From Opitutaceae bacterium (GTDB taxonomy: Bacteria > Verrucomicrobiota > Verrucomicrobiia > Opitutales > Opitutaceae): DNA of 64,000 bases. The stretch is from NCBI GenBank assembly GCA_041652235.1, contig JBAZHQ010000001.1, positions 32 through 64,031 on the forward strand. The letters run 5' to 3'. Below are positions 7,527 through 26,766 of this stretch, piece after piece. Below the pieces are notes generated by a model. The model saw only the letters and a program-made list of their open reading frames with translations, had not been told where the DNA came from and did not search any database. Both the position numbers and the translations under genes were made by a program. Within the stretch, counting starts at the first letter, position 1, and every line of letters starts with the position of its first letter.

Positions 7527-7756
7527 GCTGGCCGGCCCTCAAGAGGTACTTCCCAGGGACCGGCCAAAACATCGATGAGCGCGCTCAGCTCCTTCAGCTC
7601 GCGATACAAACCGTCCTTGTAGCCCACATGGTCGACGGTTCCACCACCCCCTCCGCTTATGTTGGGCCTTCCCCCCGCAGCAGATGTGCTGAGCGCCGCC
7701 AGCTCGGTCATGATCGCCGTTCGGCGAGCCACGGCGTTCTCCAGATCTGTGGCCAT
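7523..7756 (-). CDS. Hypothetical small protein
   Basis: Track ORF 7523..7765 starts at a GTG. ATG 7756 lies 9 nt after GAGGG. The protein has a Gly-rich centre, GGGGGT. Confidence 0.4.
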   Translation of the reverse strand: MATDLENAVARRTAIMTELAALSTSAAGGRPNISGGGGGTVDHVGYKDGLYRELKELSALIDVLAGPWEVPLEGRPA

Positions 7757-7828
7757 CGAAAACACCCTCGTCTAGCCCGCGTGTGCCCCGGACAGGGCCT
7801 CCGTGCCGGGATGCCGTATCGTTTTAGC

Positions 7829-10945: not shown

Positions 10946-12133
10946 TTAGCGAGCTGCCATCAGCAGCATGGCGTCGTCCTTGAGTTGCTCCTTGGACAAC
11001 ACAGACGCGGTGCTCTTATCCTTGTCCTGGCCCTCCTTAAAGGATTCCATGACCGATCCGCTCTTCGGCTTGGCGGAATTGCCCGCACCCATCTTCGGCC
11101 AGCTCTCGGCCAGGGCCTTGCGATCCGCCACGGGCACCGCAAGCAGTGCCTTAACCCGGATCGAGGTCGGATGCACGTGCGCCGACTCGAGAACGTCCAG
11201 CGCCTGCTCATAGTCGGGCTTGGCGGCCTTGCCCTTCTGCTTCGCGGACTCTTCCGAATCGTCACCCCCGAAATCGCCGCCGAAATCGCCGCCGTCGTCG
11301 GCAGCGGGCTCCTCGGCGGCCGGCTCCTCCTCTTCGTCGGCGAGAGCCTTGATGATCGCGTCGATCTTCTTCTGCAGCTCGCTCAGCATCGATTTCCTGG
11401 TGGCCTTGTCGGTCTTGGGATCCTTGATCGCGGGAAGGTACTTCGCCAGGATCGCGTCGATGGCGACATCCACAGGATCGCTCTCAGTTGCCGCAGCAGC
11501 CCCCGCATCGACGGCTCCGTCGCCGGCCAGGCTGCCCTCGTCGGCAATCGCGTCGTCCCCGGCCATACCCTGTGTATGGGGATCATTCATACTCTCATCC
11601 TCACTTTCAAAAATAGATGAAGTGGTTGCCGGATCCGCGACAAGGTCGACGGATCGCACCCTGGTTATACTCTCGTGAATGATCCCGCCGTTCCCGTCGG
11701 GAACCTGGATCGTCTTCGCGTTGTGGGAGAATCCGAAAATCTCAGGCATCGACTCCGCAGCCTCGCAGGCACGATCCGCGAACGGGTGCGCCTTCAAATA
11801 GTGCAAGTCCGCGTACGCCCCGTCTTCGCCGATGCGGACGTTGTGGAAAATGCCGAAGCGGTCTTCGATGTTCCGGTCAACCCCAGGCGACTCCCGATGG
11901 GGGTGGTTCAGATTGCACTTGGCCCCCTCGTACATCGACTTCGCCGCCTCCAGGCACTCCTTGGAGTACCTGCCCCCGTTCTTGGACTGGAATCCGACAA
12001 CCTTGGCCCCGTAGATGATGCCGGCCTCCCGGTCAACCTTGCACGGACGGGAGGCCTGAAAGTACTCGTAGACATCCCGCTCAACCTTTCGCGGCTTGAA
12101 CGATCCCGTCTTCATATTACTGGGCTTTGGCAT
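10946..12133 (-). CDS. Prohead protease fused to an acidic scaffold-like domain
   Basis: ATG 12133 lies 7 nt after GGGAGG (the track start is a TTG). RVRSVDLVADPA resembles the S.V..PA motif of prohead proteases. The C-terminal half is acidic, Ala-rich and helical (DGGDFGGDFGGDD, EEEEPAAEEP). Confidence 0.55.
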   Translation of the reverse strand: MPKPSNMKTGSFKPRKVERDVYEYFQASRPCKVDREAGIIYGAKVVGFQSKNGGRYSKECLEAAKSMYEGAKCNLNHPHRESPGVDRNIEDRFGIFHNVRIGEDGAYADLHYLKAHPFADRACEAAESMPEIFGFSHNAKTIQVPDGNGGIIHESITRVRSVDLVADPATTSSIFESEDESMNDPHTQGMAGDDAIADEGSLAGDGAVDAGAAAATESDPVDVAIDAILAKYLPAIKDPKTDKATRKSMLSELQKKIDAIIKALADEEEEPAAEEPAADDGGDFGGDFGGDDSEESAKQKGKAAKPDYEQALDVLESAHVHPTSIRVKALLAVPVADRKALAESWPKMGAGNSAKPKSGSVMESFKEGQDKDKSTASVLSKEQLKDDAMLLMAAR

Positions 12134-12179
12134 GGTCCCGCCTCCCAAAGTTTAAGGTAAACGAAAACTTGCTCCCCGT

Positions 12180-12218: not shown

Positions 12219-12773
12219 CTAGTCTATTGGCACCACTCGACCCTGATCTACCCATTTCCGATACAAAGATCTCTCCAGATCCGCACGATGGCTCAGCCCC
12301 GGTGGAAGGTCGTTCTTGGTGTCCCACAAGTAGTTGTCGAACGTTTCCCCGGCCCACCAGCCCGCCGTGTGTACCACGGGAAATTCCTGCAGCAAACAGA
12401 CCAAGGCCATCAACCCAGTGCTCGGCCAACCGTCTTTCTGGCCAAGCAGCATCATCGCACCGATCTCGGTCTCGCGGGGTATTTGCTCCCAATCATCGTT
12501 TAGGTCGAGTCCGTACGGCCGATACCATACCTTCCTGCATTTGGCTGGGGCAGATGGCACGCATGCCGAAGCAAACCATATCGTAACCCGCGAACCCACG
12601 TCCTCGGCGTACTCCCCGCCAAACGGATGCTCGTTAAATCGCACGACTTCGCCGAACGAATCGATCACATGACCAAGTCCCCGGCCGGATAACGACTTGG
12701 TTGCGGTGACCGCGACGACGCCTCTTGGTATAGATGCGGATACCTTCCCGACTTCAGCATCAATTCCATCCAT
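12219..12773 (-). CDS. GT29-like (sialyltransferase-like) glycosyltransferase
   Basis: GLGHVIDSFGEVVRFNEHPFGGEYAEDVGSRVTIW resembles sialyl motif L (G..ID....V.R.N....Y..DVGS). WPSTGLMALVCLLQEFPVVHTAGWW resembles motif S (PSTG...A......V...G). ATG is preceded by GGAGGAGGGGG. Confidence 0.5.
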   Translation of the reverse strand: MDGIDAEVGKVSASIPRGVVAVTATKSLSGRGLGHVIDSFGEVVRFNEHPFGGEYAEDVGSRVTIWFASACVPSAPAKCRKVWYRPYGLDLNDDWEQIPRETEIGAMMLLGQKDGWPSTGLMALVCLLQEFPVVHTAGWWAGETFDNYLWDTKNDLPPGLSHRADLERSLYRKWVDQGRVVPID

Positions 12774-13414
12774 AACAGATCCCCCTCCTCATCTATGTCT
12801 AGGTGAGGATCGTTGTGAACGACCCCCTTGATCCGCAGTTGAGCCCAAAACGCGGCCATATCCGAGAAATCCTGCTGAAGGATTCTCGGCCATAGTGCCG
12901 CAACACACCCGGAAAACGCGTGAATCTGCGGCATATCCTGCGACAAACCTGTCGGAGCAACCATTTCTACCGTCCCATCCACTTGAAGATGTGCGAGAAA
13001 TCCAAGCGGGAGGGAACGAACCATAGTCTGAACAACGTCGTGTTGATCGGTCAGGGCCTCGGCTGTCCGGTGAATCAGCAGGGGCGAATAGCAGGGCGAC
13101 GTCGTCGTTGTCGAAACGATCACGTCTACCTTCCACCGCAGATGTTCTACCGCGTATAACCACGCACGATGAATCGCACGAATCGAATTTTCGTGAACCA
13201 CCGTCGGTTCCCGGCAAACTTCCACCCCGAAATTAGTCGCGACCTTTGCAATGCTGTCGTCATCCGTAACCACGATCGTCCGCCACAGAAGGCCGGCCGA
13301 TGCTATATTCCGCATCGCGTACCACATAAGTGGTTTCCCAAGCACGCGCCGCATGTTTTTCCCAGGAACTCGTGTTGACCCACCCCGGGCCGCAACAACG
13401 CTGAGCAGATTCAT
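12665..13414 (-). CDS. neuA: CMP-nonulosonic acid (NeuA-like) cytidylyltransferase
   Basis: N-terminal AARGGSTRVPGKNMRRVLGKPLMWY is the classic acylneuraminate cytidylyltransferase P-loop. The last 109 nt overlap the GT29-like gene out of frame. Confidence 0.75.
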   Translation of the reverse strand: MNLLSVVAARGGSTRVPGKNMRRVLGKPLMWYAMRNIASAGLLWRTIVVTDDDSIAKVATNFGVEVCREPTVVHENSIRAIHRAWLYAVEHLRWKVDVIVSTTTTSPCYSPLLIHRTAEALTDQHDVVQTMVRSLPLGFLAHLQVDGTVEMVAPTGLSQDMPQIHAFSGCVAALWPRILQQDFSDMAAFWAQLRIKGVVHNDPHLDIDEEGDLLWMELMLKSGRYPHLYQEASSRSPQPSRYPAGDLVM

Positions 13415-14781
13415 TTCAGATCCTCCGTGTTGATCCGATCGAACGCCATCAAGGTATTCTTGAAGTACGGAAGCGTCGTCACAGAATTTCGAAGCATGGT
13501 CTCCACGACCAGGTTTCTGCTGAATCCCCGGCTAAGCATCTGCTCCGTGACCCATTCGTTCGTCTGGCAATTCACATGGCCGTGTCCCACTTGGCCCGGG
13601 ACGGCCCAGGATAGCACCACCTGCCGTTCGGCCATCCGGCAAATATTGTCCAGCAGGGCGTCCTGGTATTGAGCCGGCACGTGTTCGCCCACCTCAAGGC
13701 ACAGGACGGCGTCTGAGGGGCGGATGCCGAGGGGCTCGGTTAGATCCGCCTCCCCATACAAACAGCCCTTGTCGGCCGTTCCTGGCGTCCCGTCGACCCC
13801 GAAAACCGGGACGCCAGCCTTGTCCAGGGCCTCGACGTACCACCCCCTCCCGCACCCCAGGTCTACCACCCGATACTCAGCAGCCCGCCACATCCGGCAC
13901 AGGGCCTTTTCCAGGCCCTCGTCGTGCTGCGCCCCGTCGGGCAGCTCCTCCAACCAGATGCCGTGATCGTCGATCTTTCCCTCGATGGCCTTCTGGGCCT
14001 CCACAAGCCGCTGTGCCGCCAAATCGCCCTTCTGGTCCACCTCCCAGTCTCCCCAGGGAGCTGCTGACGTGAACGGGATCGGACCAACATGCTGTACCGC
14101 GACCTTACGGGTCGCATACAGCTTCGCTCCGTAGCCGTGCAAGATCCGGCTGAGCATCCAATCCTCGGTCTCCGTCTGCGTCTCCCAGCCGCCCCCAGGA
14201 ACGTAGATAATCCTGTTCCGAATCTCGAAGTGGGGCTCCAGCTCGCCACTATCGCCAACCCGGTCCCAGTACTCCGGCCGCAGATCAAGCAGCATGCACC
14301 CGGTGTTCAAGAGCAGTTTGTATCCCAGCGGCCCGGATTGATCGCCGATGTCGTCGATACAAAAGGTCTCCGGCAGCTTGAAAACCTCATGCATGGTAAG
14401 CCGGCCAAGCGGGTTCCAGCGGTTGTCCTTGGCAACCGCTGTGCTGGTGGTGCCGTGCCCGTCTTTAATCGGCGACACAGCGGCTATCCAGTGTGCGCCG
14501 GTGGCCTGCATCTCTTCGTGCAGCGTGTCCAGCCACCAGGCCGATGGAATGATGTCGGCGTGCAGCATGGCCAGGTGCGTGCATTCGCTCTTCGCCCGCA
14601 GATTCAGAGCGAAGCACAGAGCGCGATTGAAGCTCAGCGCCATGTTGCTGCACGGCGACGGATCCAGCCGCATGATGACCTTACCCTCGCCCTTGCTCAT
14701 CTCGGCGAAGTACGCCTTCGCAGCGAACGGGTTGATGTCCCCGAAGCAGGGCATGTACGCAACGATCTTGTCCATCTCCAT
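13411..14781 (-). CDS. Bifunctional GT-A-like glycosyltransferase / SAM-dependent methyltransferase
   Basis: The N-terminal half has a GT2-like layout (FNRALCFALN...LAMLHADI). The C-terminal half carries methyltransferase motif I, VVDLGCGRGWY, and later LCLEVGEH. Confidence 0.6.
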   Translation of the reverse strand: MEMDKIVAYMPCFGDINPFAAKAYFAEMSKGEGKVIMRLDPSPCSNMALSFNRALCFALNLRAKSECTHLAMLHADIIPSAWWLDTLHEEMQATGAHWIAAVSPIKDGHGTTSTAVAKDNRWNPLGRLTMHEVFKLPETFCIDDIGDQSGPLGYKLLLNTGCMLLDLRPEYWDRVGDSGELEPHFEIRNRIIYVPGGGWETQTETEDWMLSRILHGYGAKLYATRKVAVQHVGPIPFTSAAPWGDWEVDQKGDLAAQRLVEAQKAIEGKIDDHGIWLEELPDGAQHDEGLEKALCRMWRAAEYRVVDLGCGRGWYVEALDKAGVPVFGVDGTPGTADKGCLYGEADLTEPLGIRPSDAVLCLEVGEHVPAQYQDALLDNICRMAERQVVLSWAVPGQVGHGHVNCQTNEWVTEQMLSRGFSRNLVVETMLRNSVTTLPYFKNTLMAFDRINTEDLK

Positions 14782-14811: not shown

Positions 14812-16179
14812 CTATTCCCCGACGCTCTCCCGATCATTGTGCGCTTCGTCAGTCCAGGCTTCGCTGATGTTGTCGGCCGTGGGATCCTCGACCTTGTACA
14901 TCTTCTTGTTCAGATAGTAGTATTTGCCGACCATACCTCTGATCCACTTAGCCCCTGGAGGCAGCACTTTAGGTACGATCCCCCTTTGTTTTTCCTGGGG
15001 GAGACTGGTAGGAGACGCTGTGGGCTTGCTGGATTCTAGGCGTCCCAACAGCTCCTTTGCCTCGTCGGCAGTCATCGCATAGTTATTGTGGTCCGTATTT
15101 TTGAAACCATACTTCTCGTAGAACCCCCTGGCCTCGTCAGAGCTGGACAGGGTGATACCCGCATTCTGCCTCACCGCATCGGCCGCCACGTGCCTGAGCA
15201 GTGCCACTCCGACGCCTCGACCCCCGACTACAGCCCCGAAGTGGTCGATGGCGATGCTACCCTCCTCCTTCGGCAGGATCGACGTCGCACCAAGGATCCT
15301 ACCCCGCTCATCCCTGATCACAACGCGGTCTGCCCCTTGTGCCATGACCGCAGCCTCAGCCTCACCGATCGCGTTCTGACTCCCCCCTGACGACCGGATC
15401 TCGTTTGAGAGCTTCTTCCATTCATTCAGCTTAGTTCGAGAAGCAACCATTCCCCCGCCGCCTACCACCTTGCTCCTTGGATGCTTTTGCTCTTCCGCCT
15501 TCTTGTTCCGTGCTCGTGTCTCAGCCGACTTCTCACGGGCTTCGTCAGTCCAGGCTTCGCTGACGCCCATCCCCCGGCCCATCTCGTACCGAAGCTCACA
15601 CCTGCACCTCGGGTGCGCCGGCGGCCCGGTTATAGACACCCGGCCCCAAACATCCCGGGACGTCCCGTTCAACGGCCTGCAAACCGGACATACCCGATCG
15701 TCGCGTGCCGTCACCCAAATCACGTCCGGGGCGTCGATCTCCCCAAGGACGACGGCGGTGCCGATCGCACCATACTCGCCGGCCGTCTTCGCCCGGGTCG
15801 TTTCCGTGATCGCGATCTTCTCGGCCCGGTCCTCACCAAACTGCGGTGCGTAGTCCGCCTCCGCTCCGTCGGCCTTTTTCTCTGATACCGCAGCCTTCGT
15901 GTTCGCCACGATCTGCTTCGCCAGCTCGCGGCTGTACCGCTCGGCCCAATCCCCGGCCTTCTTGCTGGCGTCCTTCAGGTCGACGTCGATGTGGTCCGTT
16001 AACCGGTCGAAGCTCGCCTCGTAGGTACCGGACAGCTTCTTGGCGATCTCCGCCTGAAGATCGGCCCGAAACGCGGCCCAGTCAATACTGGGCAGTTGCT
16101 TTTCGTACCGACGAAACAGCAGCAGCAGAATCGCGGCCAGCTCCAGCTCCCGCTTTTTCCGATCCTTAAGATCCGGCAT
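14812..16179 (-). CDS. MuF/SPP1-gp7-like head morphogenesis protein fused to a GNAT acetyltransferase
   Basis: DDRVCPVCRPLNG...PPAHPRCRC is the MuF signature, and GGRGVGVALLRH...ARGFYEKYGF is GNAT motif A. The two domains are separated by SEAWTDEAREKSAETRARNKK. ATG 16179 follows the upstream TAA (TAACATG). Confidence 0.8.
   Translation of the reverse strand: MPDLKDRKKRELELAAILLLLFRRYEKQLPSIDWAAFRADLQAEIAKKLSGTYEASFDRLTDHIDVDLKDASKKAGDWAERYSRELAKQIVANTKAAVSEKKADGAEADYAPQFGEDRAEKIAITETTRAKTAGEYGAIGTAVVLGEIDAPDVIWVTARDDRVCPVCRPLNGTSRDVWGRVSITGPPAHPRCRCELRYEMGRGMGVSEAWTDEAREKSAETRARNKKAEEQKHPRSKVVGGGGMVASRTKLNEWKKLSNEIRSSGGSQNAIGEAEAAVMAQGADRVVIRDERGRILGATSILPKEEGSIAIDHFGAVVGGRGVGVALLRHVAADAVRQNAGITLSSSDEARGFYEKYGFKNTDHNNYAMTADEAKELLGRLESSKPTASPTSLPQEKQRGIVPKVLPPGAKWIRGMVGKYYYLNKKMYKVEDPTADNISEAWTDEAHNDRESVGE
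14843..14867 (-). repeat. 25-nt repeat encoding SEAWTDEA, copy at the MuF-GNAT C-terminus
   Basis: gcttcgtcagtccaggcttcgctga is identical to 15539-15563. Confidence 0.9.
15539..15563 (-). repeat. 25-nt repeat encoding SEAWTDEA, copy at the MuF/GNAT junction
   Basis: Identical to 14843-14867. Related copies lie at 17262-17285, 17822-17845 and 23325-23348. Confidence 0.85.
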
Positions 16180-16180
16180 G

Positions 16181-17896
16181 TTAGAATCCCCGCATCTCCA
16201 GGTCGGTATACAAAGCGATCTCGGACGCAAACTCCCGGTCAAACGCCTCGTCCCAGGATTCCAGAACGTCGAGGGATTCCTGCACGGAAGGATCCTTGAT
16301 AAGCGTGAATGTTTTGTAGCCCGGATGTGACCGAGTCTCCGCTTTGACCTTGTAGCCGTGGCGACGTGCGATCAAAGCCGCTGCCCGACCGTACAGATCG
16401 ACGCGGCTCTCCTCGGATAAGTTGGCCAGGAAATAAAATCTCCTGGGCCTCTCCTGCGACACAAAGCTGTCCAGGGCACCTCCAACCTTCCTGAAAAGCT
16501 CGATGGCTTTCCCCTTCAGTTTTCCGGTGATGCCAAAACCGTAGCCTTCAGATGTGTCCCTGAAATCGAAGTCCCACTCGTTGTTATAATCTTTGTATGC
16601 GCGAGCCCTAAACGGGACGTCACCGACGGAAAAGGTAGTTGTGTAGTTCCCAATGCCTTCTTTCTCCATATTCATCGGCTTTGGGTTGTAGCCCGCGACG
16701 TGCGTGCCCCCAGCAGCTCGTACCGCAGCTCGGCCCGGAGTGCGCAATCTCATCATGCCCTGAGTTGGGTCAGATGTCGGCTGCGCCGGCGTCGGTGCTG
16801 GTGCCGGACGGCTAGTGGGGTTGGCCTGCTCTTTCTCGGTCGCAATAGTGCGCAGCACAGCATCCGGCCCGCCGACCCTCGCGATCTTCTCTACGTCGAT
16901 GTTCTCTTCCTGGGGCGGGGCTGCCGGCTGCGGCTGTGCCGGTCGCTCTGCAGGTTGCTGCCCGGCCGGCCTGTTGATCGGGGCAAGCCGCTCTTTCTCG
17001 GATGAAAACTGCCGAACAAGCTCGTTGGCGTTTTCCTGCCGCTGCCGTCGCGAGATGGGACGGGTTCCCGGCCTGTGCGGACGGCCCAGCTTTTCGGACA
17101 CGGCGTTGTGCATCTCGGCGTTGCGACGTCGCGTTTCCGCCGATAACTCCCGGGCGTGTTCGGTCCACGCCTCCAGCGTCTCGGCGCTTAGATCCGCTCC
17201 CCGGGACACAAGATCGAGAAGGACGGCTTCGTTCATGGGTAACTCCTCTGACTTCCTGCGGGCCTCGTCGGTCCACGCTTCATTGATATCCTCGGATTTA
17301 GGATCGAACGTCCCTCTGTTGCCTGTAGCGGATTTAATCTGATTGGGAGAGAACGCTACAAAAGTAGTTGTTGGCGGACCTCCGAAGGCAAAGTTGCGAA
17401 TGCGATATACTACCACCCCATCATGACCCTTGGCCTTTGCGGTATCAACGATCTTTTGCATGGCCTCTCGCGTGTACAGTTTGCTATTAAAATTGACAAA
17501 GAGTGGATTCTGTACCGACAAATATACAGGCTTCACGTTTAATCCGTGGCCCGACTTAATCTCACCAAACTCTGCCGCGTCTCCGCTATCGCTAGTGAAG
17601 AAAAACACCTGCTCGCTCGTTAGCTTTGACGTATTGAACGTATCAAAATCTGACTTTGTTCCGTGATAGACAACGCGAGGCTTGCCGGACGTATCAACTA
17701 CCCGACTCTTGCCAAACCATTGTCGAAACTGCGGCGTGTCGGTTTGACGAACTCGTGGATGCTTTGTCTCCTCCTGCTTGTTCCGTGCTCGTGTCTCCGC
17801 AGACTTCCTGCGGGCTTCGTCGGTCCAGGCTTCGAGAGTGTCTTCGCTGACAACAGCTCCCCGGGACACAAGATCGAGAAGGACGGCTTCGTTCAT
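16181..17896 (-). CDS. Two-cassette polyvalent protein: leader + ART-like domain, then second leader + Pro/Gln-rich linker + unknown C-terminal domain
   Basis: FRQWFGKSRVVDTSGKPRVVYHGT...FFFTSD...YLSVQNP resembles the ART-like domain of phage polyvalent proteins. The leader MNEAVLLDLVSRGA occurs at residue 1 and again at residue 221. Confidence 0.5.
   Translation of the reverse strand: MNEAVLLDLVSRGAVVSEDTLEAWTDEARRKSAETRARNKQEETKHPRVRQTDTPQFRQWFGKSRVVDTSGKPRVVYHGTKSDFDTFNTSKLTSEQVFFFTSDSGDAAEFGEIKSGHGLNVKPVYLSVQNPLFVNFNSKLYTREAMQKIVDTAKAKGHDGVVVYRIRNFAFGGPPTTTFVAFSPNQIKSATGNRGTFDPKSEDINEAWTDEARRKSEELPMNEAVLLDLVSRGADLSAETLEAWTEHARELSAETRRRNAEMHNAVSEKLGRPHRPGTRPISRRQRQENANELVRQFSSEKERLAPINRPAGQQPAERPAQPQPAAPPQEENIDVEKIARVGGPDAVLRTIATEKEQANPTSRPAPAPTPAQPTSDPTQGMMRLRTPGRAAVRAAGGTHVAGYNPKPMNMEKEGIGNYTTTFSVGDVPFRARAYKDYNNEWDFDFRDTSEGYGFGITGKLKGKAIELFRKVGGALDSFVSQERPRRFYFLANLSEESRVDLYGRAAALIARRHGYKVKAETRSHPGYKTFTLIKDPSVQESLDVLESWDEAFDREFASEIALYTDLEMRGF
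17196..17247 (-). repeat. 52-nt exact repeat, copy 1 (cassette junction with SD and ATG)
   Basis: gctccccgggacacaagatcgagaaggacggcttcgttcatgggtaactcct is identical to 17856-17907. Confidence 0.9.
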
Positions 17897-17907
17897 GGGT
17901 AACTCCT
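17856..17907 (-). repeat. 52-nt exact repeat, copy 2
   Basis: Identical to 17196-17247. It covers the RBS, the ATG and the first 13 codons of the cassette leader. Confidence 0.9.
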
Positions 17908-18184
17908 ACCGTAGCCCCGCTTCGCGTAAACTTCGGTCCATAGCGGCGTCCTGCTCCCGCCGCAGACGTTCCATCTCCAGCTTCAAAAGCTCCTGGCGAT
18001 GCTGATACTCAGCCTCGTCCCGCTGCCGCTCGATCTCCCCGATGGCCTGCTGCTTGCGGTATCCCTCCGCGTAAGCCGCCTGCATCTGCTGCTCTAGCGT
18101 GGGCTCGGGTTTAACGATCTCAACCCGTGTCGGCTTGCAGCCCAAGAGCAGGACCAACGCCATACAAACTGCTGTCGTTCTCAT
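17906..18184 (-). CDS. Small lipoprotein with a coiled-coil tail (92 aa)
   Basis: Only the last 92 codons of track ORF 17906..19000 look real. MRTTAVCMALVLLLGC carries a lipobox L-L-G-C. The ATG forms an ATGA overlap with the portal stop at 18181-18184. Confidence 0.55.
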   Translation of the reverse strand: MRTTAVCMALVLLLGCKPTRVEIVKPEPTLEQQMQAAYAEGYRKQQAIGEIERQRDEAEYQHRQELLKLEMERLRREQDAAMDRSLREAGLR

Positions 18185-20388
18185 GGATAGTTCCCCCAAA
18201 GGATTTCTGATGCCTGCTGCAACGATTCGAAGGCGGGCTGCTCCTCGCCGGATACAAACTGCTGCGCCGGCTGCTGCTCCGGCTCCTGGCCCGCTGGAAT
18301 GGATGGATCGGCTGCCACGCCAGATGGCGGCTCCACGGGCTCCGCTTTCAGGCTGATGTCGGCCTGGGCCTTCACGATCCGCTCCGCTCGGTCGGCCTTC
18401 AGCCCCAACCCCACCAGCAGCTCGGCCGCCGCCTCCGGTGCGATCGTCTTGGCCGAAACCTGCCCCAGCAGCTCGATCGCCGCCGACACCTGCGTTCCGT
18501 TCATGGCCTGCGACGACGGCACCTCCAGCCCGGCGTCGGAGTTGCTGTTTGTATCGCCTCCCTCCTCCGGCTGTTCCGGCTGTGGCTCCGGCTGTGGCGC
18601 TGTTGGCACTGGCCCCTGCACAGCCCCCTCCACGGGAGGTTCCGGCTGGCTCGGCTTCGCCCCGGACGTCGGTGGGGCCTGCACGGGTTCCGTATTGGCC
18701 TCGTCTAGGCCCCCAGCGGCCCCGTCCTGGCCCGGTTGCCCCTGGCCTTGGGCTTTGGCCCCCTTCTTCACTTCGTCGTCGTAGTCGAGCCCAGAACGGC
18801 TTGCCGCCTCGGTCGGAGACAGCAGCCCGGCGTTCATTAGCTCCAGATCCCGTTGCGTGTCCTTCGCTCGGTCCCGCACGTCGATCTGCGGCCCCGTCAG
18901 CACGAACTCCACGGCGTGTTGCAGATCCTTCCACGCGACCCGCCCAAACCGGCCGGCCTTCCAGTTGAAGAACACAACCTTCCAGTAGACCGATTTCCAC
19001 AGGTTCTCGTGCTTGAATTGCCGCTTTTCGATCTCCTTGACGAACGGGCTGCCGGCCTCAAGGATGCTCGCATAGTTGCTATTCGACGCGGACCCCGTGA
19101 TCATATGCTCGGGCATGGACCAGATCTGGGCGATCGACCGCAGCATCCCCTCAAAGATGCTGACTAGCCCGGACGCCATGCTTTGCTGGATCCACGGTGG
19201 GGGAACGAACTTCTGGTTCGCACCCAAATACAAAGTGGTCCCCGGCTGGTACGTCTGCTGGTAGCTCGTCCGTGTCCCGCCTTTGTAGGTCGCCGTATTC
19301 GTCTGCCAGTCCGCCGCCGACATAGTCGCTGAGCTTACCTGGCTCTGGGTCGTCCCCGGGGCCATCTCGCGGATCCACGCGATCGCGGATTGGATAGCCC
19401 CGGCGTGCGTCAGGTTCCGGATCATCTTGCGGGCAAGCTCGACGTCGCCGGTGACCGGCCAAAAGTCCGATACACCACGCTTGATGTTCCGGTCGGTGTT
19501 GCTCTTGCGGGACTCCATCCAGGTGTTCCCGCCGCTCGCGGGCGGGTAGCACGGGTTGGCCCCGCCAGGAAGATAGTCCCAGTCAACCGGGTCGTTCGTC
19601 CATTGCACGTAATAGCCGTGACGGTTGCACGCATCGCCCTTGGTCGTGTGGATGCCGAACGACCAGTTGCTGTCGAACGACAGCCCGCTTTCGGCCTCGT
19701 CGATATGCTCACACAACCAATCCTCAAGGTCTCGGTGATTCGTCGGCTCGCTCACCTGGTCCGGCTCGACCACGCGGATGTCTACGCGGCCCTCGCCCCG
19801 GTTCCAAAGCCCGAGATACACCTCGCCGTCCCGGATGTCGCGGCGCAGAACTTCCTGGTCCAGATCGCCGGTGATCCCGTTCAACTCGTCGAACTCGTCA
19901 AGGACGGTCTCGATCTTCCTGAGCAGCTCCTTGGGGGCGTCCCGCTTCGTCGTGACCTTCCTGGTGAACCCCGTCGAGATCGTATAGTTCTCCAGCTTGT
20001 TCAAAATTCCGAAGCAGGTCTTGTTATAGGCCGAGAGCAGCCGCACCGTACCGCGAATCGCAGCCAGCTCCGGCTCGCTGACCCAGTACGGCCAGTTGCG
20101 ACCCTCCTGCCGATCCGTCTTGCTGGTATAGGTCGCTGCGTACGCTTGGTAGCCGAAGTTGTCGCGGCGGTAATCCTGGATGTCGACGTAGTCCTCGGGA
20201 GCATACAAACCCTCAAGCACCTCCTGGTCGCCGGCGCTGCCGAAGCTACGGTTCGCCGCCGACAAAGCCAGTGCACGATCCAGCACCTTGAATTGCTCCT
20301 CCTGAAGCCGGATGTCCATCTTTAGCTGGTTGGCACGAAATTTCTGCTCCAGCACGTCCACAGCTTCGTTTTCCAGGTCGACCGACAT
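18181..20388 (-). CDS. Portal protein
   Basis: 735 aa, immediately downstream of the terminase, with a Pro/Gln/Glu-rich C-terminal tail. Size and position are typical of portals. Confidence 0.7.
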   Translation of the reverse strand: MSVDLENEAVDVLEQKFRANQLKMDIRLQEEQFKVLDRALALSAANRSFGSAGDQEVLEGLYAPEDYVDIQDYRRDNFGYQAYAATYTSKTDRQEGRNWPYWVSEPELAAIRGTVRLLSAYNKTCFGILNKLENYTISTGFTRKVTTKRDAPKELLRKIETVLDEFDELNGITGDLDQEVLRRDIRDGEVYLGLWNRGEGRVDIRVVEPDQVSEPTNHRDLEDWLCEHIDEAESGLSFDSNWSFGIHTTKGDACNRHGYYVQWTNDPVDWDYLPGGANPCYPPASGGNTWMESRKSNTDRNIKRGVSDFWPVTGDVELARKMIRNLTHAGAIQSAIAWIREMAPGTTQSQVSSATMSAADWQTNTATYKGGTRTSYQQTYQPGTTLYLGANQKFVPPPWIQQSMASGLVSIFEGMLRSIAQIWSMPEHMITGSASNSNYASILEAGSPFVKEIEKRQFKHENLWKSVYWKVVFFNWKAGRFGRVAWKDLQHAVEFVLTGPQIDVRDRAKDTQRDLELMNAGLLSPTEAASRSGLDYDDEVKKGAKAQGQGQPGQDGAAGGLDEANTEPVQAPPTSGAKPSQPEPPVEGAVQGPVPTAPQPEPQPEQPEEGGDTNSNSDAGLEVPSSQAMNGTQVSAAIELLGQVSAKTIAPEAAAELLVGLGLKADRAERIVKAQADISLKAEPVEPPSGVAADPSIPAGQEPEQQPAQQFVSGEEQPAFESLQQASEILWGNYP

Positions 20389-20736
20389 GGCTACGCTCCT
20401 TTTGATACTTCCACCGCTCGCGGCGGAGACGTTTCTTTTTCAGGGCCTTGCGGGACAGGTTCCGCTGCTTGCCTGCCCGCCTGGCGTGCTTTCGATATTT
20501 ATGCCGGTGCCTGCCCATACAAACTGCTCGCGTCCATCTTTCGCTCCTATCTTCTGGGCCTGCCTGGGGACGATGTTGCCGGGAAAGGGATCGGGCATCG
20601 TCCCCAGGGGCCAGGCTACGAACACGGTTCCCAATACACCCCGCTGTGCGGCCCACGTTGGCCCCGTCGCGGGCTTCCGGCCCCCGCCTGGTATCCTTTG
20701 TCCTACCTGCGGCCCTCGCCGCCTGTGGGGCTCCTG

Positions 20737-22275
20737 TTACATCAGCATGCCATGCGTAACGTGCTCGTCGTTGATCTCCTCCGGCGATACTCGCTGCACC
20801 CCGCACTGGAAAACGTCCCGCATCACCCGGACGGCCAGCTCCAGGGCATCCGGCCCGTCATCATACTTACAAGCCGGGAAGCCTCGCAGTTGCTCGACCA
20901 GCAGCCTGGTCCCAGGCGTGTCGCGGAATCGGAATTCCCCACGGCTCAGGTAGGGCGTCAGGGTAGCCCGGATCCGCACCAGCTTGTTTTCCCAGTTGTT
21001 CATCGGCCACACAGGCAGGGCCATTCCAGACGCCTTGCTTTGGGCGTACAGCTCGTCGGCGAGCAGCACCTGCCACATGTTGCTCTCGACGCCCACGGCC
21101 TCCGGCCTGAACCATCGAGCCAGGTCAAGCATGTCGCCAACCACCTGCACCCGGTTCCGCCGGCGCAGATCGCCCTCGACATACATAGTGCCGTCCCGGT
21201 CCAGCCCCATCAGCACGTGTGCCTGGAAGTCGCTCTTGTCGGTTTGGCCCAACGAGGGATCGCAGGTTTGAACCCGATGCACGAAGTCCTCCAGCGGTGG
21301 CCACTCCTTGAACCAAATATTGTCGCCGAAGTAGCTCGGCTCAAACTCGGCGTCCAGGATCTCGGGTGGGTTCTGCTGATACAAAGATTCCCACATCCAC
21401 TCGTAGCCCGATGCGATATACTTCGCCCGCACCGACTCAAGCCATCGTTTTGAAAACCGCTCTGGCCACAGGGCTTCACCTAGACTTCGTCCTAACGGAT
21501 CACGCTCCTCGGCCAGAGCGGGTAATCTTAGCTTCGCCCATCGCTCGCCGCCGTTTTGCATATCCTCGGCTAAGCGGCCTATCAGATCCTTGCGGTGCCA
21601 CCTGGTTGCGATGATTACAACCCAGGCGTCCGGGGCGAGCCGGGTCGACGCTGTCGATAGATACCAGCGGTAGATCTTCTCCCGGTTGGTCTCGCTCAGC
21701 GCCTCCTCCATATTCTTCAGGTAGTCGTCGATAAGCAGCCCGTGCGCGCCTCGGCCCATGATGCTGCCGCCCACGCCGGCCGCCCTTACAGCACCTCCAA
21801 CCTCCATCTGCCAACGGTGCCTAGCCCGAACGTCCTTCCGTACCTGGGCCTGCGGCCCGAATACATCCTTCCCGTATTCCAGGGTGACGTCCAAAGCTGC
21901 TTGGCTGAAATCCATGGCCAGGTCGTCCGTTGCCGAAGTTAGAATCAAATCCCTGTCCGGATACAAAGAGGCATTCCACGAGGGAAAGTACTTGCTGCCT
22001 AGTTCGCTCTTCCCGTGCCTCGGCGGCATCTCAACAAACAGCCTCCTAATCGGCTTGGCCATCTCCGTTTCCGTCAAGCCGATAACGGATCCTAGATACT
22101 GCTGGCTTTCTAGCAGCGGCCTTCCCGTTGCCATTCGCTCCAGCAGGGTATCCAGCAAGATCAAATGTTTTGCCGGCAACCACTTCCCCCTGCTGGTCGA
22201 CGTCGCTAGATATGCTGGGGAAAGTGCTGCCTCGGGAAAGTAGCTGCTGCCGCTTGAATTCGATGTACTCGCCAT
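20737..22275 (-). CDS. terL: Terminase large subunit
   Basis: Walker A-like EMPPRHGKSELG and Walker B-like GLLIDDY, followed by a nuclease-like C-terminal half. KWLPAKHLILLDTL is typical of TerL N-termini, so ATG 22275 is the only usable start. Confidence 0.8.
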   Translation of the reverse strand: MASTSNSSGSSYFPEAALSPAYLATSTSRGKWLPAKHLILLDTLLERMATGRPLLESQQYLGSVIGLTETEMAKPIRRLFVEMPPRHGKSELGSKYFPSWNASLYPDRDLILTSATDDLAMDFSQAALDVTLEYGKDVFGPQAQVRKDVRARHRWQMEVGGAVRAAGVGGSIMGRGAHGLLIDDYLKNMEEALSETNREKIYRWYLSTASTRLAPDAWVVIIATRWHRKDLIGRLAEDMQNGGERWAKLRLPALAEERDPLGRSLGEALWPERFSKRWLESVRAKYIASGYEWMWESLYQQNPPEILDAEFEPSYFGDNIWFKEWPPLEDFVHRVQTCDPSLGQTDKSDFQAHVLMGLDRDGTMYVEGDLRRRNRVQVVGDMLDLARWFRPEAVGVESNMWQVLLADELYAQSKASGMALPVWPMNNWENKLVRIRATLTPYLSRGEFRFRDTPGTRLLVEQLRGFPACKYDDGPDALELAVRVMRDVFQCGVQRVSPEEINDEHVTHGMLM

Positions 22276-22759
22276 TGTCCTCGATCACCCTCTGAAGGCT
22301 CGCTGCCGCTACAGTGAAGCTACCACGAAGGTCGATGCGTTCCGGTTCGTCTAGCCCCATCAGCTTCCGCCTGGATTCGATACACTTCTCGACGATCTCT
22401 AAGAATCTTGGATTGCCCTCACGTCCCTCAGTTGTCTCCGATACCTCTACCCCGTCCTTCGACATCCTCCGAACGATCTTAGTGCTCGGCCTCTGGCTTC
22501 TAGTCCAACCACGCCATGCCTGCCTTTCAACGGCCTCCAGCTTTTTGATCTGCTCCTCTTTGGCATACTCAAATGCCGCCACCATATCAACCCGCCATTG
22601 CTGCCGGATCGCCTTCATATCCTTACAGATCGTCGGCACCGACCAACCAACCAACGATGCTAGCTCGGATTGGTTCGAGATGCCACGCATCATATACTCG
22701 GCCACCTTCAGCCTGCGCGACTCCTTCCTCAATTGATCTGGTGTCTTTTTCCCCGGCAT
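22046..22759 (-). CDS. terS: Terminase small subunit (HTH)
   Basis: N-terminal HTH ISNQSELASLVGWSVPTICKDMKAI, with the gene directly upstream of terL. The last 230 nt overlap terL out of frame. Confidence 0.55.
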   Translation of the reverse strand: MPGKKTPDQLRKESRRLKVAEYMMRGISNQSELASLVGWSVPTICKDMKAIRQQWRVDMVAAFEYAKEEQIKKLEAVERQAWRGWTRSQRPSTKIVRRMSKDGVEVSETTEGREGNPRFLEIVEKCIESRRKLMGLDEPERIDLRGSFTVAAASLQRVIEDNGEYIEFKRQQLLSRGSTFPSISSDVDQQGEVVAGKTFDLAGYPAGANGNGKAAARKPAVSRIRYRLDGNGDGQAD

Positions 22760-22827
22760 CGCATCATCTTTCCGATCTGGATCCTTTATAGTGCAGCGGC
22801 TTTGTCAGGAATCGGGCGGTTATAGGT

Positions 22828-23415
22828 TTATCGTGCCCAGGGAGGCGTTGACAGAGAAGTAAACACCACGTAAGCATCGATACTGTCCCCACCCTGTGAC
22901 CCGTAGGGAACGTCCGGAAGCACCGCCCCGTCATATCCCTTTGCAGTCAGCTTCCGCAACAAACTTCGCACGGCGTCCTCCCCAAAGATCTCCGCATCAA
23001 AGAGGCTGGCTGGCGGTGTGTATTCAACCTCGTCGGCGTCCATTCCAATCTGCAACGCGATCTCCTTCACCACGTCAACCGGGGCGGGATTCTTGATACT
23101 GATCTTGGACGCATGAACAGCCCCGCCACCACCAAAGCGGTCGTTATACATATCGACATAGCTTGCCGCCGCGTCCTTGTCCGTGGTGTAGTATGTCACC
23201 AACTTACCCGGGCGAGCCAACCCGCCGTGATACACAGGAAGATCGACAACTGGCTTGGATCGTGACGTCCCGGGCTCGTCCTCCTGCTTGTTTCTGGCCC
23301 GCGTTTCCGCCGACTTCTCGCGGGCTTCGTCAGTCCAGGCTTCGAGAGTGTCCCGGTCGATAGCAGCTCCCCGGGCTTCCAGATCATACAAACTGCTCGC
23401 GTCCACGATCGTCAT
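22828..23415 (-). CDS. Leader-bearing ART-like protein (paralog of the first cassette of 16181..17896)
   Basis: LYDLEARGAAIDRDTLEAWTDEAREKSAETRARNKQE is followed by LPVYHGG...YYTTDKDAAASY...ISIKNPA...KGYDGAVL...AYVVF. This is colinear with VVYHGT...FFFTSDSGDAAEF...LSVQNPL...KGHDGVVV...TFVAF. Confidence 0.45.
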   Translation of the reverse strand: MTIVDASSLYDLEARGAAIDRDTLEAWTDEAREKSAETRARNKQEDEPGTSRSKPVVDLPVYHGGLARPGKLVTYYTTDKDAAASYVDMYNDRFGGGGAVHASKISIKNPAPVDVVKEIALQIGMDADEVEYTPPASLFDAEIFGEDAVRSLLRKLTAKGYDGAVLPDVPYGSQGGDSIDAYVVFTSLSTPPWAR

Positions 23416-24070: not shown

Positions 24071-25792
24071 CTACACCGTCCGCACGGTAGACCCCTCGGC
24101 CGTCTTCGTCACGTGCAGCGTTCCGTCAAAGCCGAAGTCCAACGATCTGTGGTCGATGACATACACGGCCCGTCCCGTCGCTCCGCTCCGGTACTTCAAG
24201 CAGGCTAGAAGGTCGCGGACACCCTGCGGGCTCAGGTGTGCGGTGGGCTCGTCCCAGACCTCGAATCCGCATACAAACTGCTTCCGACTATTGATCAAAT
24301 TGGCCAGCCCCATCTGGGTCGCCAGCCTCAGTCGCTGCGTCACCCCGCCGCCCCACGCCTTCCACGGGGCATCCTCCGAGGTTCCGGGCGGTACCACGCG
24401 GACATTGAATCCACGGGATACACCTCCGCTTTTCGTCTCCCGGTCGACGCCCATCCGGATCTGCCACCGATCCAGCCCTAGCTGGGCCAGCCCGTTGTTG
24501 GCCTGCATCTCCAGCTCCGCCAGGCTTGCATCTAGAATCCACAGCCGCAGGTCGCGGAAGCCGCGCACCCAATACAAACAGCGCGCCTGCTCGCCCAGCA
24601 CCTGGCCGTGAACGGCCCGCGTCCGCTTTCTCGCCGCCCGGGCCTCCCGCAGATCCTCGGACACAGCATGAAGTCCCTCGCTGTGGGGGTTAAGCTCGAC
24701 GGCATACTGCTCGTCTTTGACCCGCAGCAGGTCGGCGGTGATAGACGCCAGGCTCTCCCGCAGCCCGGACGACTCCCGCTGTGCGGCCCGTAGAAGCCCC
24801 GACAAGCGATCGTTGGCGTCCTGCTCTAATCCTATAGCCGTCTCGATCCGCCGCAACTCCGCCCGCACCCGGGCCTCCTCGGCCGCAATCCGGCCATCCC
24901 AGGCTTCCCCCAGGTCCGAATCGCAGAACGGGCACCGCTGCAGCCCCCGCCTAGAGCCCAGATTCCTCAGATCATTGGTCAACATCCGATGCTGTGCCTG
25001 ATACTCAGCCAATAGTTTATCGCTGCCAGCCAGCACCTCGTGGCTCGCCTTGGCGAATCGCTCGGACCTAGCGTGCAACGAGGCATACAAAGTGCTCCGA
25101 AGCTTCAGCCACTCAACCTTTCGGCAGACCGCCTCCCGCCAAGCTGTGTGCTCGTGTCTCCACGCCGCCGACCGCTCCTTGAGGGATACAAACTGCTCCC
25201 GCATGACCTCGATGCGGCCCGACAACCTGTCGAGATCACGGCGCAGACTGTCGGCCTCGCCGCCCAGCTCGCCGGCCCGGGCCTTTGCCGCGTCGGATCT
25301 CCCCACCCAATAATCCAAGCCCAGCACATCGCTGAGTAGGGACAGTTTGTCGGCCGGCCCCAGATCCAGGAAGTAGTCCGAGAATTGGCCGAGCAGAGCA
25401 CTTTGTATGAACTCGGCCTCGCTCCGGCCAACCAGGTCGTCGACCGCCGCCTGCGTCACCGGGCTGCCATCAATGCGGATCTCGTTCGGGGCCTGCCGAC
25501 GCAGGATACTGACCGCCCGGCCGCCGATCTCCATCTCCAGTTCCACGCTCGCGGTACTCTCACCCCAAGCCACGACGTTGCCCGCACGCAGCCCCCGGGT
25601 CGTCTGGCCATACAAAGCCCAATGGACCGCATCCCATAGCGTGCTCTTGCCAACGTCGTTCCCCTGGAGGGACGTGTCGACCTCGTTGGATCCCCGGATC
25701 AGATACAGCCCGGGCTCCGATGGCAACACCACCCTCTGGTCCCGCTGCCGGAATGTCCGAAACCCGCTGAGGCATACACACAGCAGCTTCAC
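24071..25792 (-). CDS. sbcC: SbcC/Rad50-like ATPase
   Basis: Walker A GNDVGKST, a long coiled-coil middle containing CPFCDSD, signature GGGVTQRLRLA and Walker B FEVWDEPTAHL. GTG start with a GTGA overlap. Confidence 0.75.
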   Translation of the reverse strand: MKLLCVCLSGFRTFRQRDQRVVLPSEPGLYLIRGSNEVDTSLQGNDVGKSTLWDAVHWALYGQTTRGLRAGNVVAWGESTASVELEMEIGGRAVSILRRQAPNEIRIDGSPVTQAAVDDLVGRSEAEFIQSALLGQFSDYFLDLGPADKLSLLSDVLGLDYWVGRSDAAKARAGELGGEADSLRRDLDRLSGRIEVMREQFVSLKERSAAWRHEHTAWREAVCRKVEWLKLRSTLYASLHARSERFAKASHEVLAGSDKLLAEYQAQHRMLTNDLRNLGSRRGLQRCPFCDSDLGEAWDGRIAAEEARVRAELRRIETAIGLEQDANDRLSGLLRAAQRESSGLRESLASITADLLRVKDEQYAVELNPHSEGLHAVSEDLREARAARKRTRAVHGQVLGEQARCLYWVRGFRDLRLWILDASLAELEMQANNGLAQLGLDRWQIRMGVDRETKSGGVSRGFNVRVVPPGTSEDAPWKAWGGGVTQRLRLATQMGLANLINSRKQFVCGFEVWDEPTAHLSPQGVRDLLACLKYRSGATGRAVYVIDHRSLDFGFDGTLHVTKTAEGSTVRTV

Positions 25793-26766
25793 AGCATCGT
25801 CCTCCCAACCTCGGCGTCCGACGGATCCACCCGCTGCGCCTCCACATAGGCTTCAAACTGGTCGGCCGGCGCTCTGGGAACGTCGGTATCGTTGGCCAGC
25901 TTCAGCCGCTCCCGCCGCCGCTCCTGCAGCTCGATCCCACACAGGTCCAGCTCGTTTCGCTTGCAGATAGTCCGGATCGCCTGCCGATACACATCCCACC
26001 GTGAGAAGTCCGCCCGCCGCAACGACACAACGACCTTAACCTGGTCGCCGGCCCGCCACTCGGGCATCTCCTCGATCTCGTCGGGATCCCGGATCCGCAA
26101 AACCAGCTTCCGAATCGTCTCCGGATACAAACTCCAGTGCCGGCCCCCGTCCAGCATCACCACCCGGGGCTCAAACGAGTCCCCGAAATGAATCGGGTAG
26201 GGCGAACCAACATACTCGACCACGCCAACCTGCTGAGGGACATGGATGTCGCCGGCCCAAACCTTCCCCACGCCCTCCAGGGCTCTGGCTCCGACGCCGG
26301 CCAACTCACGGCCCGATTCGCTGACAGCACCGCTGAACACCTGGTGGCAGCCAACATAGTCAATGCCGATCTCCTGCATGTACTTCCGGTCGGCCCATAC
26401 AGGCTCACGGGAATGCGGGAAGAAGGCCCACCGCACGTTGCCGATCTCAACCATACGCTGTTGCGAATAGAAAAAGCACCTGGGAAGCTCCGAGATGAAC
26501 GAAAAGAACGGCTTGGATCCCTCGGCATAGTCATGGTTCCCCATAAGGATGTGGATGCCGATCCCCTCGCGAGCCAGCGCAGCCAGGGCCGATACAAGCC
26601 GGTTGACCAGGTGGCTAGAGTGATAATCTTTTTCGTCGGTGAGATCGCCGAGGATCACCAGGTTTGAGAAGCTTTGCCCCCACAGCCATTCCGTCAGAAA
26701 CGTCCAACGATACTCGTCCTTCGGACGATCCGTCAGATGCAAGTCCGCCGTGACGAGCGTTCGCAT
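25789..26766 (-). CDS. sbcD: SbcD/Mre11-like nuclease (calcineurin-type phosphoesterase)
   Basis: Internal ATG gives MRTLVTADLHLTD, ILGDLTDE and MGNHDY. RBS is GGAGAGAAGGCCA. Confidence 0.8.
   Translation of the reverse strand: MRTLVTADLHLTDRPKDEYRWTFLTEWLWGQSFSNLVILGDLTDEKDYHSSHLVNRLVSALAALAREGIGIHILMGNHDYAEGSKPFFSFISELPRCFFYSQQRMVEIGNVRWAFFPHSREPVWADRKYMQEIGIDYVGCHQVFSGAVSESGRELAGVGARALEGVGKVWAGDIHVPQQVGVVEYVGSPYPIHFGDSFEPRVVMLDGGRHWSLYPETIRKLVLRIRDPDEIEEMPEWRAGDQVKVVVSLRRADFSRWDVYRQAIRTICKRNELDLCGIELQERRRERLKLANDTDVPRAPADQFEAYVEAQRVDPSDAEVGRTML

Follow-up and report, generated by a model that had tools for sequence, protein, structure and literature searches.

Why would one short peptide recur six times among the head genes of a phage, at the boundaries of otherwise different proteins and domains? 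The question is raised by a stretch of 64,000 nucleotides, here called the window, which is nearly an entire 65.9-kb NCBI contig that is binned as an Opitutaceae metagenome-assembled genome. The contig reads as phage, with phage genes on one strand across the whole window. The peptide, here called J, is about 22 residues long and is found in three proteins: the open reading frames (ORFs) ORF195 and ORF571, and a MuF-GNAT fusion.

The answer proposed here has a descriptive and a mechanistic part. That these are effector cassettes with a selected boundary module is very likely. That J-headed proteins are virion-internal, injected effectors, with J as their N-terminal handle and with internal copies probably cut before its A-W pair, is given a probability of roughly one in two. 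From the sequences we infer the packaging, the cleavage, the binding partner and the injection.

A six-frame regular-expression search of the window for EAWT[DE][EH]A gives six matches, all on the minus strand, as are the other window genes and domains given below. They lie at 14842-14862, 15538-15558, 17153-17173, 17261-17281, 17813-17833 and 23323-23343. A profile of the leader scores only ORF195, ORF571 and MuF-GNAT across the whole 64 kb. This agrees with the initial annotation, which had listed the peptide six times in MuF-GNAT and two ADP-ribosyltransferase (ART)-like reading frames.

In the window J reads h-x-E-A-W-T-D-E-A-R-x-K-S-A-E-T-R-A-R-N, with h hydrophobic, and it comes in four full and two truncated copies. 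The full copies are found at the MuF/GNAT junction, in leader 1 and leader 2 of ORF571, and in ORF195. Each stands ahead of a payload: a GNAT domain, an ART-PolyVal domain, an unassigned domain and a divergent ART-like paralogue, respectively. The truncated copies, at the C-terminus of MuF-GNAT and after the first ART domain of ORF571, have no payload behind them. The earlier statement that every copy precedes a payload therefore holds for the complete ones.

Two further candidates were rejected. The sole other match with two mismatches, at 40330, lies in a frame interrupted by stop codons. A seventh look-alike at the C-terminus of ORF571, VLESWDEAFDREF, is the conserved tail of that payload and not a copy of J, because the homologous protein P0039 has LDETFDEAFDREF, without the Trp.

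The DNA is repeated as well, in the two exact blocks that had been reported before: 52 nt (17196-17247 = 17856-17907) and 25 nt (14843-14867 = 15539-15563). The chance expectation for exact 25-mer pairs in 64 kb is about 5e-6. Such blocks invite the reading that J is above all a handle for recombination between DNA copies, like the VENN boundary of CdiA, with no function as a peptide. The truncated copies and the fusion in ORF571 do resemble recombination scars, and payload order varies among relatives. In the related phage L002, four copies share a lineage-specific variant, KSLETRRARAKL, at 96-100% nucleotide identity, so homogenisation or recent duplication also occurs.

What this reading does not explain is how the codons differ. 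Compared pairwise, the window copies have 94-100% amino acid identity (17-18 of 18 core residues), and 4-7 of those codons differ synonymously. The copies in ORF195 and at the MuF/GNAT junction, for example, are 100% identical over 18 residues with 7 of 18 codons synonymously different, and the leader-1 copy matches a copy in locus L004 at 18 of 18 residues with 9 synonymous differences. Synonymous divergence of 20-50% of codons, combined with such amino acid identity, means that J is kept by selection on the protein, and not merely by recent duplication. Judged by these codon comparisons, J is under purifying selection as a peptide. The motif is also kept across clusters of less than 50% identity, where nucleotide homology is gone. 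A role purely in recombination is thus very improbable, and recombination is probably a consequence of J and not its purpose.

What lies around these copies? ORF571 (WC378_00095, 16181..17896) was deposited as a hypothetical protein. Its parts are, in order, leader 1, the ART-PolyVal domain, a truncated J, leader 2, a Pro/Gln/Ala-rich linker and the unassigned C-terminal domain. On this layout ORF571 is two effector cassettes fused in frame.

The first J of ORF571 covers residues 20-40 (17777..17839), behind a 19-residue N-terminal extension, MNEAVLLDLVSRGAVVSED. The ART-PolyVal domain (PF18760) takes up residues 68-197 (17306..17695) and scores 89.7 bits against a cut-off of 31.2, with the full profile covered (1-140 of 140). 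It is 40% identical to the ART module of relative P0003, where this is fused behind MuF. The truncated J that follows, INEAWTDEARRKS (17249..17287, 18.7 bits), directly abuts a duplicated ribosome-binding site and the start of cassette 2.

That duplicated start is the internal copy of the 52-nt repeat (17196..17247). It consists of AGGAG, a 7-nt spacer, an ATG (17234-17236, Met221) and the first 12 codons of leader 2, and the TAG stop found upstream of the first repeat copy has become GAG here. Since the repeat carries both AGGAG and ATG, the second half of ORF571 would be able to start independently, and Met221 is, by its sequence context, likely an independent start of cassette 2. The J behind it, TLEAWTEHARELSAETRRRNA (residues 240-260, 17117..17179), is the most diverged full copy.

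The unassigned payload at the C-terminus (about residues 400-571, 16184..16699) is 45% identical (E=1e-32) to P0039, a separate 227-aa protein in a relative which has its own J leader and is the counterpart of the second half of ORF571. Beyond that, this domain has just a weak match to phrog_24699 and no Foldseek match at E<=1e-3. Its AlphaFold model is poor, with a predicted local distance difference test score (pLDDT) of 51.

The MuF-J-GNAT protein (P0001, MFA5262192.1, deposited as GNAT family, 455 aa, 14812..16179) starts at an annotated ATG at 16179, 1 nt past the ORF571 stop, which supersedes a TTG at 16242. Its head-morphogenesis domain of the MuF (SPP1 gp7-like) type, at 15592..15942, scores 36.7 bits on PF04233 against a cut-off of 29.6. 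TIGR01641 gives 36.6 bits, under its cut-off of 39.65. Eleven PHROGs match the protein, mostly from the head-and-packaging category and multiple of them MuF-family.

J follows as VSEAWTDEAREKSAETRARNK (15502..15564), and short MuF homologues terminate exactly where it begins. The acetyltransferase domain behind it (15085..15351) scores 34.4 bits on PF13673 (cut-off 23.6) and 28.1 on PF13508 (cut-off 27). On inspection of the sequence, its R-x-x-G-x-A acetyl-CoA motif (RGVGVA) is intact. The Pfam searches that had been suggested for each segment thus place MuF, GNAT and ART-PolyVal above their cut-offs. The protein ends in a truncated J, ISEAWTDEAHNDRESVGE (14815..14868), followed by a stop; this copy, which shares the exact 25-nt block with 15539-15563, probably remains from a downstream cassette that was lost.

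Behind two of the window copies stands the string KHPR (15478-15500 and 17750-17775). In the relative P0038, AHPRDDQGRF similarly stands behind a degenerate MuF-proximal J (LESWTDD), at residues of about 215-235.

ORF195 (WC378_00125, 22828..23415), another deposited hypothetical protein, lies just upstream of the putative small terminase gene. It consists of an N-terminal extension, a J copy at residues 23-43 (TLEAWTDEAREKSAETRARNK, 23287..23349), and a divergent ART-PolyVal-like payload. The N-terminal extension ahead of J (LLDLVSRGA...) is conserved in close relatives only. The payload of ORF195 has no match of its own in Pfam, PHROG or NCBIfam and falls short of the PF18760 model. Compared alone to the ORF571 ART domain by BLAST, it gives E=1e-5 and 22% identity across the whole domain. 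Of the two paralogous ART-like domains proposed in the initial annotation, the one in ORF571 is therefore supported by its own family model, and the one in ORF195 as a pairwise paralogue.

Is J peculiar to this phage? A profile search of 1.84 billion representative proteins at E<=1e-3 returned 31 clusters, many with several copies. This includes one false positive, P0031, which is repeated junk sequence. Scans with DNA patterns brought in about 10 loci from IMG/VR and 50 from metagenomes, with 73 further copies. Together, these searches place J in more than 80 further phage-like proteins.

The outcome does depend on the method of searching. A first metagenome scan, confirmed by tblastn, found none, and it was a looser DNA pattern that later yielded the 50 loci. 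A word-index protein search with a 49-residue leader profile and a 189-residue fragment from the ORF571 C-terminus came back blank. As the window's own proteins sit in that collection, these blanks are false negatives and are not counted as absence. A leader scan of genome contigs gave a single match, a AEAWTDEARRYY stretch in a metabolic enzyme from Muribaculaceae, which was rejected as chance. J has no match in Pfam, the PDB (profile search) or INPHARED (tblastn), all at E<=10, and a full-text literature search for J peptide strings returned unrelated papers only.

The survey of related phages for the same leader on different payloads, as had been suggested, bears out the idea of a portable unit: relatives join MuF, portal or DUF2213 carriers to quite different payloads. 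Elsewhere, what stands before J is MuF, a portal C-terminus or a DUF2213 protease-like domain, and what stands behind it is an ADP-ribosyltransferase, a NUDIX, Zeta toxin or HExxH domain, or a small basic protein. Where Pfam domains can be recognised, J falls between the best-scoring domain envelopes.

The closest comparison is that of MuF-GNAT with its relatives P0002, P0003 and P0004. Their MuF body is 50-52% identical to that in the window, and J between MuF relatives is 85-90% identical. The region after J has 10-26% identity by forced global alignment, which is background. Accordingly the payloads in this set are a GNAT, an ADPrib_exo_Tox, an ART-PolyVal and a peptidase-like domain. P0002 is MuF-J-ADPrib_exo_Tox, P0003 is MuF-J-ART-PolyVal-J-X, and the further relative P0038 is MuF-...-J-ART-PolyVal.

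Longer arrangements also exist. The relatives P0003 and P0024 have 3-5 domains per protein. In L002, which has a similar portal, the gene after P0003 reads N-extension-J-ADPRT-J-ParB-like...Zeta toxin. The portals P0029 and P0041 have J plus an inserted payload within their C-terminal extension, and the portal extension of L002 (8159-9997) contains a degenerate EACTDEARR. Giant proteins of 1100-1550 aa have 2-6 copies of J around a DUF2213-like domain, proteins of 680-760 aa have 4-5 copies, and locus L019 encodes NUDIX-J-DUF2213. At the other end of the scale are small proteins with one N-proximal J, then an ADP-ribosyltransferase, DRAT-like or HExxH domain.

Other features accompany J in some of these loci. 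L023, L053 and L072 have tandem, translationally coupled arrays of basic proteins of 80-150 aa, each beginning with MAWSDEARRAALEARRLHAK; some of these have ART-like YRGT or YHGT motifs, and they resemble T4-style internal proteins. The giant DUF2213 proteins P0027, P0028, P0035 and P0040 contain GGPGSGHHGHxGIPGxxGGS and Gly-rich hydrophobic stretches. In L046, L063, L050, P0041 and P0042, J is followed by long helical repeats rich in His, Ala, Glu and Lys (...AHxxAAxAHE...), both in free proteins and in a portal extension.

The anatomy of J was drawn from 56 copies, counting the Trp as position 0. The consensus is [VILT]-x-[E/K/N/D or start Met]-A-W-[T/S]-[D/E]-E-A-R-x-[K/A]-[S/A]-[L/A/I]-E-[T/A]-R-R. 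By position, this is V, I, T or L at -4 (1.9 bits), N, E or K at -2, A at -1 and the invariant W at 0. Then come T/S at +1, D/E at +2, E at +3, an invariant A at +4 and R at +5, followed by K/A at +7, S/A at +8, L/A/I at +9, E at +10 and T/A at +11. The final part has R at +12, R/A at both +13 and +14, and A at +16, and conservation fades beyond about +18. From this pattern, J should be a single charged helix, its N-terminus capped by the T/S within a W-T/S-D-E-A-R box and with an acidic first turn. One face would, in our reading, consist of small residues flanked by invariant arginines.

A helix so rich in E, R and K, placed between domains, might be no more than a stiff charged single-helix spacer of the ER/K type. 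The (near-)invariant positions (W, T/S, A+4, R+5, S+8, E+10 and R+12, at 3.4-4.3 bits each) are far too specific for a spacer, and J is also found at the extreme N-terminus of single-domain proteins, which makes this reading hard to credit.

Those N-terminal copies tell where the motif begins. There are 21 genes that start M-A-W-[TS]-[DE]-x-A-R, with a canonical Shine-Dalgarno sequence 6-10 nt upstream. The start often abuts or overlaps the preceding stop, and the genes often form coupled tandem arrays. It follows that J functions with nothing upstream of it, and that the motif edge is exactly the A before W. One such locus, the 11.9-kb contig L011, encodes a portal, MuF, a J-protein, a topoisomerase IB, a J-protein, a scaffold and a P22-type coat. 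The gene between the two J-headed ones (6851-7786) is a type IB topoisomerase (Topoisom_I, 105 bits) that may be packaged.

Internal copies, by comparison, have a hydrophobic residue at -4 and a residue at -2 that is fixed within a genome and clade and differs between clades. It is E in the clade of the window; two large groups have K or N, and a few small ones D or L. The initial annotation had noted a hydrophobic-x-E ahead of A-W. In every copy of the window's clade [V/I/T/A]-x-E is indeed found there, so this part stands, but the Glu is a peculiarity of the clade and not general. Of the 14 loci with Asn at -2, 11 also have a DUF2213-like domain, which is found in none of the 48 loci of other types; the region homologous to this domain is labelled a head-maturation or prohead protease in some phage records. 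Such a pattern suggests a residue before the cut (P1) that is matched to the protease of the clade, where shared ancestry alone could produce the same.

The start Met at the motif edge, the hydrophobic -4 and the restricted -2 give indirect support to a cut before A-W. It may also be that no cut is made, and that J is an adaptor or hinge helix which binds MuF, the portal, the scaffold or packaged DNA, so that polyvalent proteins stay intact and the residues before A-W serve binding or helix capping. J does work at the extreme N-terminus, no protease is recognisable in the window, and none is visible on the 11.9 kb of L011, with its P22-type coat and scaffold module. The face of small residues (A+4, S+8, A/T+11) by the invariant arginines (+5, +12, +13) would suit a close fit to a partner or to the backbone of a nucleic acid. 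There are also polyvalent proteins that enter the capsid unprocessed, N4 vRNAP being one (Iyer et al., PMC5512222). An uncleaved tether however leaves unexplained that -4 and -2 are conserved only where polypeptide lies upstream, that each clade has a fixed residue at -2, which goes along with the DUF2213 domain, and that the motif edge falls exactly at the start Met. It is considered an unlikely explanation, if one with several points in its favour.

In the preferred explanation, ORF195, ORF571 and MuF-GNAT would be virion-internal, injected effector cassettes of the polyvalent protein or MuF polymorphic toxin kind. On free-standing proteins, J would be an N-terminal tag for entry into the procapsid near the portal/MuF vertex. 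In fusions, it would mark where a cargo unit is attached to its carrier: MuF in the window, and in relatives either a protease-like domain or the portal. Internal copies would be cut by the phage head protease just before A-W, here after [V/I/T/A]-x-E, and the released units would then share the A-W end that is native to the M-A-W proteins. The conserved DNA of J would provide homology for cassette shuffling, and such shuffling would explain the fusion in ORF571, the pair of truncated copies and the differing payload orders in relatives.

The initial annotation had already suggested a capsid-targeting or maturation module. For this speak the head-gene setting, the MuF fusion, the ART-PolyVal domain, the varied carriers and payloads, and the rules at the motif edge. 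In addition, a MuF-family protein is encoded on 7 of 7 J-bearing contigs, counting those with head-module genes scanned by Pfam or PHROGs.

Several findings weigh on the other side. Among the scanned head genes of the window no prohead protease is confidently recognisable, and none of the gp21 type (S77) was identified. The link between -2 and protease type is confounded by phylogeny, and the N-type loci may be one clade. K-type loci have differing proteases: trypsin-like in L007 and Peptidase_S78_2 in L010. P0004 has its peptidase-like domain joined to MuF with no J between them, and fusions to MuF can therefore do without it. With a narrow MuF model, MuF is found in 7 of the 50 metagenome loci, most of which are short and on which the model says little. 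J also co-occurs with unrelated coat families (Phage_capsid_4 and P22 coat) and unrelated portal families. This is awkward for a tag that specifically binds the coat. It points to a partner that is more widely shared, with MuF, DNA and scaffold-independent sites as candidates.

A pairing of Lys at -2 with a trypsin-like head protease was tried and rejected as not general, since the K-type L010 has Peptidase_S78_2. In L007, the 97.6-kb phage contig where this pairing is seen, the trypsin-like protease gene lies two genes past the portal (19028-19807), and all copies of J have Lys before A-W.

Within the window, the candidate for a prohead protease by gene position is a 400-aa protein at the protease/scaffold position (10946..12148). 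It has no match in Pfam, NCBIfam, the PDB or INPHARED and no named family in PHROGs, where its sole match is phrog_29592, of unknown function. An hhalign comparison with DUF2213 gives a probability of 0.2, and the AlphaFold model is poor (pLDDT 33).

A universal partner might also be sought in the host. J could act after injection, as an arginine-rich helix with a composition like that of the RNA-binding motifs of phage N proteins, steering effectors to a host structure such as nucleic acid or the ribosome. That J is kept across clades with different coats and portals would fit a universal ligand, as would the E-T-R-R-R box with the Trp. The leader also weakly matches an 'Lsr2-like' PHROG (E 3.5e-6), a marginal match in which no single stretch passes. 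J is however repeated in giant scaffold- or protease-like proteins and in portal extensions, which are not effectors. The substrates of the payloads are unrelated, and J has no match in Pfam or the PDB. A role on the host side is therefore judged quite improbable.

The wider version of the preferred explanation is that J is a portable capsid-loading and ejection tag of tailed phages across many clades, coupled to a clade-matched protease site upstream, so that every released cargo would begin with A-W. In function it would then correspond to the T4 targeting sequence or to the cargo-loading peptides of encapsulins. This is put forward tentatively, with the odds somewhat against it. It does make a prediction: virions should contain A-W N-termini, and the residue that precedes the cut should match the protease of the phage.

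It is hard to tell from sequence which phage proteins are packaged and injected, anti-defence enzymes and host-takeover ADP-ribosyltransferases among them. The known targeting signals (of T4 and P1) are confined to lineages, whereas J spans several clades, many kinds of enzymes and three virion carriers. Should J serve for loading, for release or for both, it would provide a sequence rule that predicts the injected effectors, or injected proteome, of uncultured phages. It would also explain how polyvalent proteins are assembled and re-assorted. Finally, J would be a candidate handle for phage-delivered cargo, where about 22 added residues could load foreign proteins into capsids.

The head module in which all this takes place spans about 8-27 kb of the window, and every gene there is on the minus strand. 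In order of transcription, an SbcCD-like pair is followed by two small ORFs, ORF195, the putative small terminase, TerL (20737-22275) and the portal. Next come a small lipoprotein-like ORF, ORF571, MuF-GNAT and a three-gene sugar-modification cluster. The module then continues with the 400-aa protein, a 310-aa protein and the major capsid protein, of the Phage_capsid_4 family (8455-9837).

The portal protein (18181..20388), recognised by Pfam and PHROG scans, has a long Pro/Gln/Glu-rich C-terminal extension of about 200 residues that ends in a conserved W..YP. Close relatives of this phage were found neither in INPHARED (by DNA and TerL) nor in IMG/VR (by ORF195 and portal), and the best TerL match in known phages is below 35% identity.

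Three genes lie at 12219-14781, between MuF-GNAT and the gene at the protease/scaffold position. One encodes a GT29 sialyltransferase-like protein (47 bits), and GT29 is unusual in phages. Another encodes a CMP-sugar cytidylyltransferase (CTP_transf_3, 69.6 bits), and the third a protein of 456 aa with an S-adenosylmethionine (SAM) methyltransferase as its C-terminal half. This cluster could be a sugar-modification cassette for the virion or host surface. Just upstream of the packaging genes, at 24071-26892, are two proteins that, judged from their translations alone, are an SbcC-like ATPase of 573 aa and a protein of 367 aa that resembles SbcD and metallophosphoesterases.

How does J relate to what is known? 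Polyvalent proteins (Iyer, Burroughs, Anand, de Souza and Aravind 2017, PMC5512222) are multi-domain effectors encoded beside portal and terminase genes and predicted to be packaged and injected. They include the ART-PolyVal family PF18760, which is the domain found in ORF571, and they share with the proteins described here the MuF and portal fusions, and relatives with Zeta toxin, ParB-like, 2H phosphoesterase, NUDIX and HExxH domains. Multiple domains are found here as well: ORF571 combines an ART with a second domain and MuF-GNAT a carrier with an enzyme, both between the portal and capsid genes. The differences are that the paper proposes processing by embedded metallopeptidases, and that the units here are small, partly split into separate genes, and each headed by the roughly 22-residue J. 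Term searches of the paper turned up no account of a recurrent boundary peptide.

The MuF polymorphic toxins (Jamet et al. 2017, PMC5576092) have a conserved N-terminal MuF and a variable C-terminal toxin or enzyme, and also lie beside portal and terminase genes. Similarly, homologues of MuF-GNAT share MuF and not the C-terminus. Such toxins belong to a temperate phage or prophage setting with a cognate immunity gene; no immunity gene was identified here, where no search aimed at one was made. A full-text term search of that paper turns up neither a conserved junction motif nor any word on cleavage or recombination. J, in contrast, is a defined junction module which also heads proteins without MuF, and which also follows portals and DUF2213.

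In T4, the capsid-targeting sequence is a short N-terminal peptide on unrelated internal proteins (Alt and IPI-III), including an ADP-ribosyltransferase. It is removed by gp21, which cuts after hydrophobic-x-Glu. As a putative targeting peptide, J resembles this in that it is shared and stands at or near the N-terminus, with a proposed cut after hydrophobic-x-Glu. Small size and a basic character are also common to many J-proteins and the T4 internal proteins. It differs in having no sequence similarity, in being twice as long, and in being also internal, C-terminal and repeated. In other clades, moreover, Lys, Asn, Asp or the start Met stands in place of the Glu, and the window has no identified gp21-family protease. 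The packaging of T4 Alt in the capsid is also cited in the polyvalent protein paper (PMC5512222). If cut at its N-terminal edge, J would stay on the cargo, unlike the T4 sequence.

Pre-toxin boundary motifs, such as VENN of CdiA and PxxxxDPxGL of Rhs, stand directly N-terminal to a hypervariable toxin domain. J likewise marks where homology between alleles ends, with truncated 'orphan' copies downstream. Its sequence is unrelated to these motifs, however, it is repeated within proteins, and it can be the extreme N-terminus. The proposed route of delivery is the phage capsid, where these motifs belong to secretion systems.

The cargo-loading peptides of encapsulins and the N-terminal packaging signals of the phage P1 Dar proteins are short, portable peptides that send unrelated proteins into a shell of the HK97 fold. 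J is unrelated to them in sequence, and a shell or scaffold is a hypothetical binding partner for it. Each of the three kinds, polyvalent proteins, MuF toxins and capsid-targeting peptides, was known before. J itself, undescribed as far as the databases and literature were searched, is a widely distributed boundary or tag module that links these three.

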